A stretch of DNA of 11,027 nucleotides from Elusimicrobiota bacterium (GTDB lineage Bacteria > Elusimicrobiota > UBA8919). The position numbers were made by a program, and so were the translations under genes. The notes beneath the pieces are model-generated. The model was not told where the DNA came from. It worked only from the letters and a program-made list of their open reading frames with translations, and made no database searches. Below are positions 161 through 6,455 of the stretch, in pieces; position 1 is the first letter of the stretch, and each line of letters opens with the position of its first letter. Where the stretch lies: contig JBDRIG010000041.1 of NCBI GenBank assembly GCA_043816185.1, positions 1 through 11,027 on the forward strand, read 5' to 3'.

Positions 161-847
161 TTATATTTGTTTCACTTTGTCAATATCGGTATATCTCCCA
201 ATAAGAACAAGTATATCTCCGTCTTGTAAAATCTCTGAAGCAGGTGGAGCAATAAACAATTCCTCTTTGAAATCAGTTTCACCGTTATCTTTAATATATG
301 GTATTTTTCTTTTAATACCTATAATATGTAGATTATATTTTGCTCTTACGTCAACATCCTTAATCGTCTTATCTATAAATAATTGAGGAACAATAACCTC
401 TGCCATATTATATTCTGGCGAAAGTTCTATTTTTTCTATTATGTTCGGAGATAATAACATTTCTGCAAGTTTTATCCCCATATCTCTTTCAGGAAAAACA
501 ATTTTATCAACACCTATTTTCTGAAGAACCTTCGCATGTATATCATCTAAACCTTTAACAACAATGTTTTTAACACCAACTTCTTTTAATATCAAACTAG
601 TAAGAATACTCGCTTCCCTGTTATCGCCGATAGCAATAATAGCAGTATTAAAATCACTAAGACCAAGTTCTCTTATCGATTTTTCATCTGTTGAATCTGC
701 TACTACTGCCTGAGTAATGAATGAAGAAATTTCCTGTATTTTTCGTTCATTCGTGTCTATAGCAAGAACCTGAATGCCTCTTTTTGACAATTCTTTCGCA
801 ACAGCAATTCCAAATGTTCCAAGTCCAATAACCGCAATTTGTTCCAT
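161..847 (-). CDS. ktrA: Ktr/Trk potassium uptake system RCK (NAD-binding) regulatory subunit, KtrA/TrkA family
   Basis: MEQIAVIGLGTFG Rossmann motif, AIIAIGD, KIGVDKIVFPERDMG, C-terminal RCK_C domain. ATG at 847 matches the family N-terminus; the longer ORF (TTG 901) runs into repeat DNA. Confidence 0.92.
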   Translation of the reverse strand: MEQIAVIGLGTFGIAVAKELSKRGIQVLAIDTNERKIQEISSFITQAVVADSTDEKSIRELGLSDFNTAIIAIGDNREASILTSLILKEVGVKNIVVKGLDDIHAKVLQKIGVDKIVFPERDMGIKLAEMLLSPNIIEKIELSPEYNMAEVIVPQLFIDKTIKDVDVRAKYNLHIIGIKRKIPYIKDNGETDFKEELFIAPPASEILQDGDILVLIGRYTDIDKVKQI

Positions 848-868
848 AATAACAGCAGCAGATAGTAA

Positions 869-1046
869 CACTACTTCGTTAGGTGGCTCATTTACCGACA
901 ACCTATTTTATGTTCATGGTCATTGCGAAGTGAGGTCGCCACAGGCGACCGTGGCAATCCCAGCGTTAAAGACGAGATTGCTTCGCTATCGCTCGCAATG
1001 ACAACAAGGTCGCTCGCAATGACGGACTGAACTTAACGAAATAGTA
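869..1046. mobile_element. MITE-like element with imperfect terminal inverted repeats and a possible 4-bp target duplication
   Basis: ACTACTTCGTTAGGT (870-884) matches the reverse complement of 1031-1045 (ACTATTTCGTTAAGT) at 13/15; GTAA flanks both sides (865-868, 1047-1050); no transposase. Confidence 0.55.
919..1023. repeat. GTCATTGCGA...TCGCAATGAC palindromic (REP/RPE-like) element, copy 1
   Basis: Perfect IR 919-928/993-1002; inner hairpin GGTCGCC-ACA-GGCGACC (934-950); GCAATC/GATTGC stem (954-959/976-981); right end TCGCTCGCAATGAC duplicated (989-1002, 1010-1023). Confidence 0.85.
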
Positions 1047-1138
1047 GTAAGTAATTAGTAATAGCGATTGACTCAAATTAATAAATTTTCGAACCAACAT
1101 TCGCCACTACAAACCATCTATTCGCTATCTTTTCTCTG

Positions 1139-1145
1139 CCTCCTT
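1139..1145 (-). promoter_or_regulatory. Strong Shine-Dalgarno AAGGAGG overlapping the ktrB stop, with no canonical start codon at normal spacing
   Basis: Minus strand reads TAAGGAGGCAGAGAAAAGATAGCG; the ktrA ATG is 291 nt downstream. Confidence 0.6.
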
Positions 1146-2475
1146 ATCCGACTACAACTTTATCTTCAATGTAACGAAATTTTTCTACACCACTTTCATC
1201 TATAACAACAGTTGCAATTGTTAAAGGTCCAAGCCTTCCAACAAACATCGTCAATATTATAAGCAACTTACCAAAAGGCGTAAAAAAAGATGAAAATGAA
1301 AGTAATGTCCCAGTAGCACTAGATAAACCACAGGTTGCAAATGCTGAAACAACTTCAAAAAGTGTTTTCATGAAGTCCTTACCTTCAATAACTAAAATCA
1401 AAAATGTCATTACCAATACAAAAACAAAAGCAAAAAAAGTGAGTATAAATGATTTTTGAACAATTTCAGCAGAAATCCTTCGCTTAAAAATGGAAACATC
1501 TTTTCTGCCTTTTAGTGTTGTTTTTATACTCATAAGAACTGTAGCAAACGTCGTTGTTTTTATTCCACCTCCGGTTCCCGATGGAGAAGCACCTATAAAC
1601 ATCAGCCCTATAATTAAAAATAAAATTGGAGCAGTAAGTGCTGAAATATCAATAGTATTAAAACCTGCTGTGCGAGGAGAAACGGATTGAAAATAGGCGG
1701 ACAATAATTTATCTTTAAACGAAAGAAGCCCAATTGTATTCGGATTATTATTTTCCAACAGAAATATCAGGACAGTGCCTATAACAATAAAAATTATCGT
1801 CGTCCAAAACACAACTTTTGTGTGTAAAAGAAATCGCTTCGTTTTTTTGTAAGAATGAACGTCGCTGATAACAATATAACCAATGCCTCCCAAAATTATA
1901 AGCGTTGTTATTCCAAGATTTATTACTACGGAACCGACATAATTTGTGAGATTCGGTCCGAAGGTTGAAAAACCGGCGTTGCAAAAAGCGGAAACCGAAT
2001 GAAAAATTGAATGCCCAAAGCCACTGACAATTCCGAATTCTGGAATCCACTTTATTGAAAGAATTACCGCCCCTATAAATTCAATAAGTAACGTAATTTT
2101 TGCAACATAAACTATAAACTTTTTAATTTCATTAAATGAAAATATCTGTATGCCTTCAGCAAACGTAAGTCGATCCTTCAAAGACACTTGTTTACCTATC
2201 ATAACCACAAATAATGTGGCAAGTGTCATATAGCCCAAACCACCAATTTGAATAAGAAGTAGTATGATTATTTTGCCAAATAATGACCATTGCGTCGCTG
2301 TATTTACGACAATAAGTCCTGTAACACAAACAGCAGATGTCGCTGTAAAAAATGCATCAACAAAACTTACACATTGTGATTGAGCAGAACAAACAGGTAA
2401 TGACAAAATAATGCTTCCAATTAAAATTACACCTGCAAAACCGAATATAAGAATCTGCTGTGAGGATAATTTCAT
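1144..2475 (-). CDS. ktrB: Ktr/Trk potassium uptake membrane subunit, KtrB/TrkH family
   Basis: 443 aa hydrophobic protein with four pore-loop motifs: TATSAVCVTGL, SAFCNAGF, RTAGF, SAFATCGLS; also GASPSGTGGGIK and MFVGRLGPLT. Confidence 0.93.
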   Translation of the reverse strand: MKLSSQQILIFGFAGVILIGSIILSLPVCSAQSQCVSFVDAFFTATSAVCVTGLIVVNTATQWSLFGKIIILLLIQIGGLGYMTLATLFVVMIGKQVSLKDRLTFAEGIQIFSFNEIKKFIVYVAKITLLIEFIGAVILSIKWIPEFGIVSGFGHSIFHSVSAFCNAGFSTFGPNLTNYVGSVVINLGITTLIILGGIGYIVISDVHSYKKTKRFLLHTKVVFWTTIIFIVIGTVLIFLLENNNPNTIGLLSFKDKLLSAYFQSVSPRTAGFNTIDISALTAPILFLIIGLMFIGASPSGTGGGIKTTTFATVLMSIKTTLKGRKDVSIFKRRISAEIVQKSFILTFFAFVFVLVMTFLILVIEGKDFMKTLFEVVSAFATCGLSSATGTLLSFSSFFTPFGKLLIILTMFVGRLGPLTIATVVIDESGVEKFRYIEDKVVVG

Positions 2476-2477
2476 AA

Positions 2478-2948
2478 TTAATTTGCAGCCTGTGTTTCTG
2501 AAGAGGTTACTGTCGATGATTGCACTGGCAGGTCTGCTTCGTGTTTATCCGCTGTGGCAGAAACATGGCAGGTAGACTCGTCTGGTGATTGTCTGGTAGG
2601 CATTTTTGATTTTGCAATTTCCGCTAACTGCGCGAAATCTTTTGGATGTGAAATGGCAATATCGGCAAGCATTTTTCTATTAAGCGTTATACCAGCTTTT
2701 TTAATTCCTGAAATAAATCTACTATACGACAAACCATTAAGACGAGCAGCCGCATTAAGCGTTAAAATCCACTGGCTTTTTTTATCACGCTTTCTTTGAA
2801 TTCTGCCGACATATGAATGAACCAGTGCCTTGTCCACTCTTTCCGATGCATGTATGTAAACATTTTTGTTGGACAAACGAAATCCCTTTGACTTCTTAAA
2901 AAGTCGTTTTTTCCTTCTTCTTGTTACAACTCCACCTTTAATACGCAT
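2478..2948 (-). CDS. rplT: 50S ribosomal protein L20 with ~40-aa C-terminal extension
   Basis: MRIKGGVVTRRRKKR, SKGF, RKRD..WI..LNAAAR..GLSYSRFI.G.KKAGI.LNRKMLADIA; follows rpmI. Confidence 0.96.
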   Translation of the reverse strand: MRIKGGVVTRRRKKRLFKKSKGFRLSNKNVYIHASERVDKALVHSYVGRIQRKRDKKSQWILTLNAAARLNGLSYSRFISGIKKAGITLNRKMLADIAISHPKDFAQLAEIAKSKMPTRQSPDESTCHVSATADKHEADLPVQSSTVTSSETQAAN

Positions 2949-2959
2949 GTTATTAAAAT

Positions 2960-3014
2960 CAATTATAAACTGAGAATTTAACGCAAAAAATTCTTAATTC
3001 TCAATTTGTAATTG
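2960..3014. repeat. 19-bp imperfect inverted repeat with 7-nt periodicity, between the SD and start of rplT
   Basis: CAATTATAAACTGAGAATT (2960-2978) and AATTCTCAATTTGTAATTG (2996-3014); SD AGGAGG at 3020-3015 abuts it. Confidence 0.85.
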
Positions 3015-3020
3015 CCTCCT

Positions 3021-3218
3021 TTACAGATACGGTAAAATAGTTTTTATCATCTTTGTGTCAACTTTATTTAACGTTGCTGCTTTTTTCAAATGTCGCATTC
3101 TGTTTGGTGACTTCCCTGTAAGAATATGTCGTGCACCTTGTTTTTTTCTCTTAATTTTACCCGTTGCCGTTAGAAAAAATCTCTTTTTGGCGCCACTGTG
3201 TGATTTCAATTTTGGCAT
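3021..3218 (-). CDS. rpmI: 50S ribosomal protein L35
   Basis: MPKLKSHSGAKKRF..TATGKIKR...ARHILTGK...LPY; SD GAAAGGAG upstream. Confidence 0.97.
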   Translation of the reverse strand: MPKLKSHSGAKKRFFLTATGKIKRKKQGARHILTGKSPNRMRHLKKAATLNKVDTKMIKTILPYL

Positions 3219-3245
3219 AGTATCTCCTTTCTAATACAAAATGAG

Positions 3246-3264
3246 AAAAAAATTCCGAAGAATC
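3246..3264 (-). terminator. Possible weak intrinsic terminator/attenuator upstream of rpmI
   Basis: Minus strand GATTC-TTCG-GAATT (cUUCGg tetraloop) running into a T tract; the stem is short. Confidence 0.35.
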
Positions 3265-3472
3265 AAAAATTTCTGAATGGCCTTCCCGATTTATCAGAAC
3301 AACTTATTTTTTTTCAGCCGCCAAAATTCGACAGGATTTAACGACGAAATCTGGCGACGAAACATAGCAAGAAACAAATTGCTAAAAACTCACTTAATGG
3401 AGCGAGTTCTGACAACTATTTCCCCGCTCGTAAAATCTCATCTTCAGCGGAAAAAAATTTGTTTCCAAACAA
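3251..3472 (-). other. Multi-hairpin intergenic region, candidate cis-regulatory RNA
   Basis: Six consecutive stems (3420-3454, 3387-3408, 3365-3384, 3317-3358, 3271-3299, 3251-3264); several mismatches become G-U pairs on the minus (mRNA) strand. Confidence 0.5.
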
Positions 3473-3976
3473 CTATTTTTTCGGTGAAAGAATTGCACTT
3501 ATTGAGTTTCCAACCAAGCGTGGAGACGAATCGGGCTGCCCGTATTCACTTACAGCCACAAGAAGACGATTGATTATATCTCCACCCACCGATATATGCT
3601 CCCTCTCTCTCCCGAAAAACTGCATCAGTACTTTTACCTTGTTTTTTTCTTCGAGAAACCGTTTGACATGTTTGATCTTTACTTCTAAATCATGCTCACC
3701 GATTTTTGGTCTTATCTTTATTTCTTTCAAAACACCAGTTTTATGAACTGTTTTGTTTTTTTTACTTTGAAGATACTTGTATTTTTTGTAATCAATAATT
3801 TTACACACTGGCGGGTTTGCCATTGGTGCTATTTCAACAAGATCAACACCAAATTCCCTTGCTAAAGATATTGCTTCCATTATAGATTTTTCTCCAAGTT
3901 GCGTTCCGTCCTCACCTACCAAACGAACCCTTGGTGCTCTTATTTGATTATTAATTTTTAAAAAACTTTTTGAAAT
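3473..3976 (-). CDS. infC: Translation initiation factor IF-3, non-canonical ATT start (167 aa)
   Basis: SD GGAGGTGA (3990-3983), 6 nt, then ATT at 3976 in frame with the ORF track; adds SKSFLKINNQIRAPRVRL; motifs DLVEIAPMANPPVCKIIDY and KEIKIRPKIGEHD. Confidence 0.95.
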   Translation of the reverse strand: MSKSFLKINNQIRAPRVRLVGEDGTQLGEKSIMEAISLAREFGVDLVEIAPMANPPVCKIIDYKKYKYLQSKKNKTVHKTGVLKEIKIRPKIGEHDLEVKIKHVKRFLEEKNKVKVLMQFFGREREHISVGGDIINRLLVAVSEYGQPDSSPRLVGNSISAILSPKK

Positions 3977-4121
3977 TTTATATCACCTCCATAACTCAAG
4001 CAACTTTGCTGCAAAAATTGCAAACGAAAAACAATTGATAGAAAATTATTTATTACTCATTCTTCTATGTTTTGCTTTTCTACTTTATTACAACCTGCGA
4101 TACTTCTTCTTCACTTCTCTC

Positions 4122-6033: not shown

Positions 6034-6056
6034 AATTGTTTCCAGAAAAAACATGG

Positions 6057-6133
6057 ATCAAAAAAACAAAAATAAGCGATAAGTGACTTGAATTAAATAA
6101 AGACAAAAAAACCTAATTCTTAATTCTTGATTT
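6057..6133. repeat. Heptamer-periodic imperfect hairpin between acpP and fabF
   Basis: Minus strand AAATCAA GAATTAA GAATTAG; ATCAAGAA pairs with TTTTTGAT and TAAGAAT with ATTTTTG using G-U pairs. Confidence 0.55.
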
Positions 6134-6138
6134 CTTCT

Positions 6139-6381: not shown

Positions 6382-6390
6382 AATACCCCC

Positions 6391-6445
6391 TTAAAATCAA
6401 TTACAAATTAGGAATTAAGAATCGGATTTTTACATTAAATTCTCG
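6391..6445. repeat. Second copy of the rpmI-rplT heptamer element, between fabG and acpP
   Basis: Plus strand CAATTAC AAATTAG GAATTAA GAAT...TTAAATTCTC aligns with the minus strand of 3014-2972 (CAATTAC AAATTGA GAATTAA GAAT...TTAAATTCTC). Confidence 0.8.
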
Positions 6446-6455
6446 ATCGCCTTTC

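Follow-up and report, generated by a model that had tools for sequence, protein, structure and literature searches.

The stretch of DNA analysed here, called the window below, is 11,027 nucleotides long and corresponds to contig C41 (JBDRIG010000041.1, assembly GCA_043816185.1) of an uncultured groundwater Elusimicrobiota bacterium, whose assembly comprises 1.44 Mb at 34% GC and is 94% complete. All genes of the window are on the minus strand: rpmF, plsX, fabH, fabD, fabG, acpP, fabF, rnc, infC, rpmI, rplT, ktrB and ktrA. The products of the last two are of the TrkH type (ktrB) and of the TrkA type (ktrA, domains TrkA_N/TrkA_C), and the order rpmI-rplT-ktrB-ktrA is preserved even among phylum-level relatives. 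At two junctions of this gene run, rpmI-rplT and ktrB-ktrA, a Shine-Dalgarno (SD) like motif located at the upstream stop codon is separated from the next start codon by an insert predicted to fold upon itself. The features of the two junctions are the following.

3021-3023, minus strand: stop codon (TAA) of rpmI, the gene for L35
3015-3020, minus strand: AGGAGG, SD-like motif directly after the rpmI stop
2960-3014, minus strand: predicted fold-out hairpin insert of 55 nt, with 6+12 base pairs and a 17-nt loop
2949-2959, minus strand: unpaired U/A-rich spacer of 11 nt (ATTTTAATAAC), from the helix to the start codon
2478-2948, minus strand: rplT (L20, 156 aa, with a C-terminal tail), ATG at 2946-2948, devoid of an SD of its own
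1139-1146, minus strand: stop codon of ktrB (TrkH-type), TAA at 1144-1146, overlapping AGGAGG at 1139-1144 (the first A is common to both)
1046-1138, minus strand: older, lineage-typical junction hairpin up to the beginning of its 3' arm (with the 5' arm and an inner hairpin), which aligns with genome G001
866-1045, minus strand: nested dispersed repeat of 180 bp, resembling a miniature inverted-repeat transposable element (MITE), with inverted ends CTACTATTTCGTTAAGT and ACCTAACGAAGTAGTG
848-865, minus strand: leftover base of the 3' arm (CTATCTGCTG), then the spacer (CTGTTATT) that leads up to the start of ktrA
161-847, minus strand: ktrA (TrkA_N/TrkA_C), ATG at 845-847, the start being fixed by the conserved N-terminus MEQIAVIGLG

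An initial annotation had described, at both junctions, an AGGAGG at the upstream stop followed by a structured stretch and by an AUG lacking its own SD, with linear SD-AUG distances of 66 nt for rplT and 291 nt for ktrA. All of this was confirmed on the sequence, and none of the words GGAG, GAGG and AGGA occurs in the 14 nt preceding either start. For rplT, the single long hairpin and the folded distance of about 11 nt that had been proposed hold as well: in the predicted fold, the helix begins 0 nt after the SD and ends 11 nt before the ATG. The 5' arm of this hairpin is purine-rich and contains a weak tandem array of the 7-mer AATTAAG (2.6 copies, Tandem Repeats Finder, TRF), while the 11-nt spacer together with the last two paired bases makes up the 3' motif of the family, YTGAT.TTA... 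The z-score of the rpmI-rplT fold is -2.4 against dinucleotide shuffles, and -3.9 when the SD-to-ATG stretch is compared with mononucleotide shuffles.

The single hairpin announced for ktrA did not hold. The 291-nt stretch has a minimum free energy (MFE) of -100 kcal/mol (z -4.2), and two parts of different origin can be distinguished in it. The first 98 nt after the ktrB SD are unique in the genome and can be aligned to the ktrB-ktrA spacer of G001, a genome of the same genus. The segment 866-1045 is GC-richer, contains GTCATTGCGAGCGA motifs, and gives 64 matches at E<=10 in the 1.44-Mb genome; each position is present in 20 to 48 copies, many of them partial. Like a MITE, it is present in many copies, has inverted ends, which pair in the predicted fold, and has no coding capacity; no clear target-site duplication was seen. 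A unique 5' half aligned with G001 next to a dispersed repeat points to the insertion of a second element into the older hairpin, within its 3' arm. Judging from its sequence, the ktrA insert of the window is therefore a composite, made of the older hairpin of the lineage and of a nested, unrelated 180-bp repeat. This repeat has no Rfam match. It was also considered as an Ssn-related motif (SRM, PMC11893778), and this assignment was rejected: the pattern matched twice, against 2 to 4 times in five shuffles, and the GIY-YIG domain of the Ssn nuclease (PF01541) was not found at E<=0.001 in the 94%-complete assembly. UvrC normally has a GIY-YIG domain; its absence may reflect an assembly gap or a loss.

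The anatomy of the junctions is conserved in relatives, with unrelated sequences. We collected 13 rpmI-rplT junctions, of which 12 represent species of the order (11 in the family, the host of the window included) and one a metagenome contig, and 11 ktrB-ktrA junctions, each from a different genome. The metagenome scan had yielded 3 close relatives, of which L239 alone was new. A geometric rule was applied to the predicted folds, namely that one enclosing helix should begin within 2 nt downstream of the SD-like motif and leave 6 to 12 nt before the ATG. It was obeyed by 20 of the 24 junctions, against 1.25 of 24 expected from shuffles (200 per junction); these 24 junctions come from kin and are not independent, though their hairpin sequences are mostly unrelated. 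Distances of exactly 0 and 8 nt were found in 13 of these 20, and 8 nt is the mode before the ATG. The four misses were L038, where the rule placed the end of the SD too far downstream, L068, where an SD-like motif is lacking altogether, L066, and the ktrA of the window. At orthologous junctions the layout is thus in clear excess over chance, and the earlier suggestion that the inserts are neutralised by RNA folding is supported by a predicted geometry (0-2 nt, then about 8 nt) kept in most of them.

In the relatives, the linear distance between SD and ATG varies from 24 to 163 nt, and hairpin sequences are mostly unrelated between genera; across the order, stems count 18 to 46 pairs. The only recurring letters are those of the junctions themselves, GGAGG-CA (5' foot) and TG-AT.TTA.. 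(3' foot). The SD-like motif ends 4 to 12 nt past the stop in all 13 rplT junctions, and in the 22 junctions examined the final 14 nt contain neither GGAG nor GAGG nor AGGA. Column-wise covariation was weak where an alignment could be made (double changes in 0 of 43 and in 3 of 27 pairs), so that the argument rests on unrelated sequences yielding an identical geometry. According to these predictions, the junctions have the features of a split translation initiation region: an SD too far from its start, a stem-loop restoring about 5 to 11 nt, no SD adjacent to the ATG, and a structure kept despite sequence change.

Empty sites were found too. Outside the order, the rpmI-rplT junction measures 12 to 42 nt in 15 of 17 relatives from the phylum and has its SD beside the ATG; by its sequence, such a junction looks like the expected empty site. 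In genome G007, a member of the family, the rplN-rplX, rplX-rplE and rplE-rpsN junctions are empty as well (10 to 13 nt, e.g. taa TAAGGTTAATT atg), at places where other genera have hairpins of 60 to 130 nt. Comparison with relatives lacking the inserts therefore agrees with the initial idea that these lie inside formerly tight ribosome-binding sites (RBSs). A separate case was encountered in another family of the phylum (locus L045, genome G017). Its rpmI-rplT junction is 233 nt long; it opens with AAGGAGGAG, continues with an extended inverted repeat rich in GC (ACCCCGCACCTTTCAGACAT ... ATGTCTGAAAGGTGCGGGG) and closes with GAGAAGAAA and the ATG: an independent hairpin, unrelated in sequence, between the SD and the rplT start.

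The inserts are not restricted to the two junctions described above. Similar ones occupy most junctions of the S10-spc-alpha ribosomal-protein operon, in the genome of the window (about 25 in series) and in eight relatives. The stretch from L14 to L6, compared in nine genomes, provided 33 long junctions, among which an SD-like word was present at the stop only in 13, at the ATG only in 7, at both ends in 5 and at neither in 8. Eight of the 13 junctions having the stop-proximal SD alone presented the geometry with 0 nt before and 7-9 nt after the helix. By inspection, about a dozen more junctions of the same genome show the full layout, including those of rplE, rplO, rpsM and rpsD and sites on contigs C9, C61, C70, C81, C82 and C94. 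Two further inserts lie in the window itself.

6382-6455, minus strand: fabG-acpP junction, hairpin element of related type with an identical 3' end (..TAATTGATTTTAA), then an ordinary SD (GGGGG) and the ATG
6055-6138, minus strand: acpP-fabF junction, insert of 84 nt with words (AAGAATTAAGAATTAGG) common to the rplT hairpin

At fabG-acpP the element is present and the RBS is unsplit; at acpP-fabF no SD-like motif adjoins the ATG.

As to their composition, TRF detected tandem arrays, mostly of period 7 to 9, in the arms of 19 of the 24 junction inserts, and these arrays correspond to heptamer-type repeats, defined by head-to-tail units of 5-11 nt. The more purine-rich arm was the 5' one in 21 of 22 inserts. 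Extended-SD words numbered 82 in 5' arms and 10 in 3' arms, and anti-SD words 1 and 57 respectively, the real SD being included in these counts for some folds. G-U pairs render the fold specific to the sense RNA. Sequences also disperse between junctions: at least 30% of 8-mers were common to hairpins of non-orthologous junctions in 6 of 153 pairs from the same genome and in 8 of 1505 pairs across genomes, up to a sharing of 0.65 between the ktrA hairpin of G005 and the rpsH hairpin of G006. Such long shared words mean that inserts were copied or converted between junctions, beyond inheritance in place, and the proposal of a family of inserts is supported in this respect.

Another insert within an insert, the second after that of ktrA, was observed in L245 (genome G008), where the rplN-rplX and rpsH-rplF hairpins have 67% of their 8-mers in common and each contain, in the loop region, a copy of one nested GC-rich insert (GGTCGCATTGCTATGCGAC...). 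The genome of the window gave 3 matches to Y1_Tnp. A weak Y1-transposase match of 166 aa (C39:19172-19665) is flanked by GC-rich palindromes (GGCATGGCTTTAGCCATGC, GCAAACCTAAAGGTTTGC, GTAGGGC..GCCCTAC), also present at C28:10259-10691 and C49:25036-25144, which differ in kind from the AT-rich word hairpins. Together with the Y1 gene, the C39 palindromes look like a pair of repetitive extragenic palindrome (REP) and REP-associated tyrosine transposase (RAYT), forming a third repeat family in this genome.

That this genome uses SDs is clear from a 22-fold enrichment of GGAGG before starts, from the full extended SD of infC (GGAGGTGAT), and from the 16S 3' end of 5 genomes of the family (GGATCACCTCCTTT), which is a canonical anti-SD; the assembly itself has no 16S gene. 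SD-like 4-mers just past the stop were in mild excess, being present in 43 of 518 junctions of 40-400 nt and in 2 of 70 convergent ones. Among the 394 same-strand spacers of 40-200 nt of this genome, z<=-3 was reached by 6 of the 16 in which an SD-like word lies at the stop alone, compared with 24 of the 260 in which it is missing from both stop and ATG (Fisher test, 0.0037). The rpmI-rplT junction and several ribosomal-protein junctions are missing from these spacer lists, because the list of open reading frames (ORFs) drops genes below 70 aa.

We propose the following scenario. Both junctions of the window would ancestrally have been tight, with the stop codon, the SD, about 8 nt and the ATG. 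A foldback insert, whose arms are arrays of short tandem words, would have invaded each of them, with its ends precisely at the SD on one side and at the spacer on the other. Once transcribed into mRNA, the insert would fold into one long hairpin projecting from the junction, leaving the SD to end 0-2 nt before the base of the helix and the start codon to lie about 8 nt after it. The 30S subunit, or a ribosome coming from termination at the upstream stop, would then meet the SD and the AUG at a normal spacing. The inserts would form a dispersed family with fast turnover, colonising operon junctions throughout this Elusimicrobiota family, and selection would retain only the copies whose folding preserves the geometry. 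At the window's ktrA, the unrelated 180-bp repeat would later have landed inside the hairpin. With moderate confidence, we thus think that the cell tolerates or exploits the foldback inserts as split (accommodated) translation initiation regions, of the kind known for genes 25 and 38 of phage T4. On this reading, the hairpin would form in vivo, the distal SD would be used, and the inserts would be selfish elements and not regulators. What had initially been proposed is supported in part: it holds for the inserts and their geometry, ktrA is a weaker example, and processing by RNase III has no support beyond the presence of rnc.

Several observations weigh against this reading. SD-like words were absent, confined to the ATG or present at both ends in 20 of the 33 long L14-L6 junctions, which means that the inserts are not tied to split sites; nor was a stop-proximal SD clearly commoner in junctions without an ATG-proximal one (13 of 21) than in those with one (5 of 12). 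SD-like motifs may also belong to the 5' end of the element, rather than being a retained signal of the host. In the predicted ensembles, the mean probability of being unpaired was 0.39 in the SD, as against 0.50 in the spacer and 0.30 in the insert, so that the SD is only moderately free, because GGAGG can pair weakly with the U-rich spacer. At the ktrA of the window, the MFE structure has one base helix enclosing everything, which starts 9 nt after the SD and ends 3 nt before the ATG, instead of the 5-8 nt first estimated, and the arrangement typical of the family (0 and 8 nt) is 7.8 kcal/mol costlier. SD use is sparse: a 4-mer SD was seen before 280 of the 1264 first candidates for a start and before 49 of the 924 internal controls, and only about a fifth to a third of the genes have one. 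Taken with the 8 of 33 long junctions devoid of any SD-like word, this implies that SD-independent starts are common.

Genome-wide scans against controls mostly failed to extend the excess seen at orthologous junctions. An SD-anchored scan gave 99 hits of 995 with the real anchors and 99 with random ones, and a stricter version 18 against 13 genes, the MFE criterion being unspecific in such scans. In a whole-genome stem-scoring scan, real and shuffled scores were nearly equal below 60, so that AT-rich hairpins of this size cannot be separated from chance genome-wide. Two more searches were uninformative: MFE domains of whole intergenic regions missed the known cases as well, their helices being carried into the SD by weak G-U pairs, and a regular expression built on the 3' motif was too degenerate (a direct ATG 30 times, against 18 in the reversed control). 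Lastly, T4 hairpins are short, and stems of 18-46 bp between an SD and an AUG have no tested precedent.

A bolder reading, which we find possible though rather doubtful, is that the inserts are self-spreading, portable split RBSs. With SD-like words in the 5' arm, anti-SD-like words in the 3' arm, and a free SD and an 8-nt spacer at their feet, they would copy themselves specifically into the SD-AUG gaps of operon junctions, including most ribosomal-protein genes, and act there as adjustable valves of translational coupling, not as neutral junk. The valve action would follow from register slippage of the word arrays, or from weak pairing of the SD with the U-tract, either of which would set the exposure of the SD.

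Alternatively, the distal SD could be a relic. The hairpins would then be selfish or made by slippage, the GGAGG would be a leftover or a part of the element, and rplT and ktrA would start independently of an SD or by termination-reinitiation; in the latter variant, the hairpin merely holds the stop codon and the AUG close together, loosely as in a ribosome shunt. The many genes of this genome without SD are in keeping with this, as are the 8 long ribosomal-protein junctions without any SD-like word, and rplT and ktrB are coupled across a 2-nt gap in which there is no SD. Moreover, the stop lies 4-12 nt before the base of the helix in 13 of 13 rplT junctions, so that folding shortens the path from stop to AUG too, and translational coupling is sensitive to distance, declining as it grows (PMC12548453). 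On the other hand, a G-rich 5-mer kept in all 13 rplT junctions is not expected to survive neutrally at 34% GC amid a full turnover of the hairpins, and the spacing of 0 and 8 nt is counted from the SD and not from the stop, which lies 4 to 12 nt from the end of the SD, depending on the junction. We consider this explanation unlikely.

The inserts could also be processing sites, as suggested initially, their stems serving as substrates for RNase III, in the way of rRNA intervening sequences or Correia-type elements, to cut the polycistronic mRNA or set its decay, the translation geometry being secondary. Stems of 18-46 pairs are long enough for RNase III, and rnc is in the same gene run. The presence of rnc is uninformative, however, because nearly all bacteria carry it, and the idea found no other support. 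Cutting would part the SD from the AUG, and would leave the conserved 0/8 geometry and the retention of the SD unexplained. No match to 23S_rRNA_IVP (PF05635) was found at E<=0.01 in the 94%-complete assembly, and a reading of the inserts as cassettes like rRNA intervening sequences (S23p / 23S_rRNA_IVP) was not supported on this basis. Processing appears to us quite improbable.

Slightly less credible still is a regulatory switch, in which the U-rich spacer would pair with the GGAGG as in a fourU-type thermometer, or the helix would bind L20 or another protein, so that the insert tunes translation. In other bacteria, L20 is known to autoregulate this operon; the MFE folds computed with the flanks do contain weak SD-spacer pairing, in line with the accessibility of 0.39, and alternative registers are possible in arms made of tandem words. 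Yet inserts of the same kind are present at unrelated junctions (ktrA, many ribosomal-protein genes, acpP), no conserved ligand or protein motif was seen beyond the junction letters, and the hypervariability of the insert sequences speaks against a specific site for a protein. As for weak intrinsic terminators or attenuators setting the ratio of upstream to downstream transcript, for which the U-rich tail after the stem (ATTTTATT, ATGTTATT) might speak, they are highly improbable, as the terminator scan called none at the rpmI-rplT or ktrB-ktrA junction, the stems are long and AT-rich with the ATG within 8 nt of them, and about 25 of them in series in a ribosomal-protein operon would starve the distal essential genes.

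The closest parallel to an accommodated split initiation region is found in phage T4. There, a stem-loop shortens the SD-AUG distance from 22 to 5 nt in gene 38 and from 27 to 11 nt in gene 25, at the junction of genes 26 and 25, both with support from mutations and probing (Nivinskas et al. 1999; Malys & Nivinskas 2009; summarised in PMC3014915). In both systems, an SD that is too distant is brought back to a working distance by a stem-loop (here from 46-163 nt to about 8 nt, by prediction), and the structure is present in close relatives and absent from distant ones; the site is intercistronic here, like that of genes 26 and 25. Here, in contrast, the layout concerns a cellular lineage and many junctions, including ribosomal-protein genes, and the inserts, known from their sequence and predicted folds, are long (stems of 18-46 bp) and hypervariable, are built of tandem 7-9-mers and spread between junctions. 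The thrS gene of E. coli offers a looser parallel than T4, with a hairpin located between the two parts of the ribosome-binding region and accommodated by the ribosome without unfolding (Sacerdot et al.; described in PMC3936740). In thrS, as described there, the SD stays by the AUG, the distal part is a single-stranded standby region, and the hairpin is where a regulator binds, in a single gene and not in a repeat family.

Long simple-sequence repeats of heptanucleotides, and TAACTGA repeats before starts, have been described as direct repeats (Mrazek et al. 2007; summarised in PMC4679880). They resemble the present arrays by their tandem units of about 7 nt in intergenic DNA near starts, their patchy spread and the rarity of adjoining canonical SDs. 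Unlike these direct repeats, the complementary arrays found here form a hairpin, are fixed relative to SD and AUG, and have a strict purine-first polarity. The short tandem repeats of cyanobacteria known as STRR are comparable. REP, BIME and REPIN elements, and MITE-type repeats such as the Correia elements of Neisseria, are small, non-coding, dispersed intergenic repeats that fold on themselves and are transcribed together with genes. By comparison with REP and Correia elements, the present inserts have no conserved core, their arms are arrays of words, and they are positioned precisely inside the RBS. Our literature search, which left subscription journals largely aside, found no paper on repeat-built hairpins splitting RBSs in bacterial operons.

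Some observations were made on the neighbouring genes. Between rplT and ktrB there are 2 nt (TAATTATG, window 2475-2478), without SD. L20 has 156 aa here, with a tail of about 40 residues (window 2478-2600, minus strand) past the Pfam domain, which matched residues 2-108; rplT open frames range from 118 to 171 aa in relatives, so this tail is variable. The infC gene (window 3923-3990, minus strand) has an apparent non-ATG start (ATT or ATA) a few bases after its extended SD, and the TTG start listed for its ORF falls inside the conserved N-terminal domain. The start of rpmI is preceded by an ordinary SD. The infC-rpmI spacer (window 3219-3472, minus strand) is 254 nt long, with an MFE of -75 kcal/mol and a z-score of -4.18, equalled by 0 of 200 shuffles. 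This leader could be a candidate lineage-specific autoregulatory leader of the L20 type; it has no match in Rfam, and a search of the whole window at E<=1 gave just one chance match, inside ktrB.

The split-RBS layout has so far been proven only for a few genes of phage T4, and it has been treated as a phage curiosity. Here the same predicted geometry is encountered across an order of uncultured bacteria, at essential cellular genes (L20 and other ribosomal proteins) and at a K+ transporter subunit. It persists although the intervening sequence has turned over completely and although the stems greatly exceed in length all those tested so far. Should the distal SD be in use, the 30S subunit would have to tolerate large helices between SD and AUG, and such starts would be misjudged by gene callers and RBS models. 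Under the same condition, tight operon junctions would be the niche of a particular mobile or slippage-driven element, and the long-unexplained heptamer repeats of bacteria would gain a concrete function, or a mechanism by which they are tolerated.

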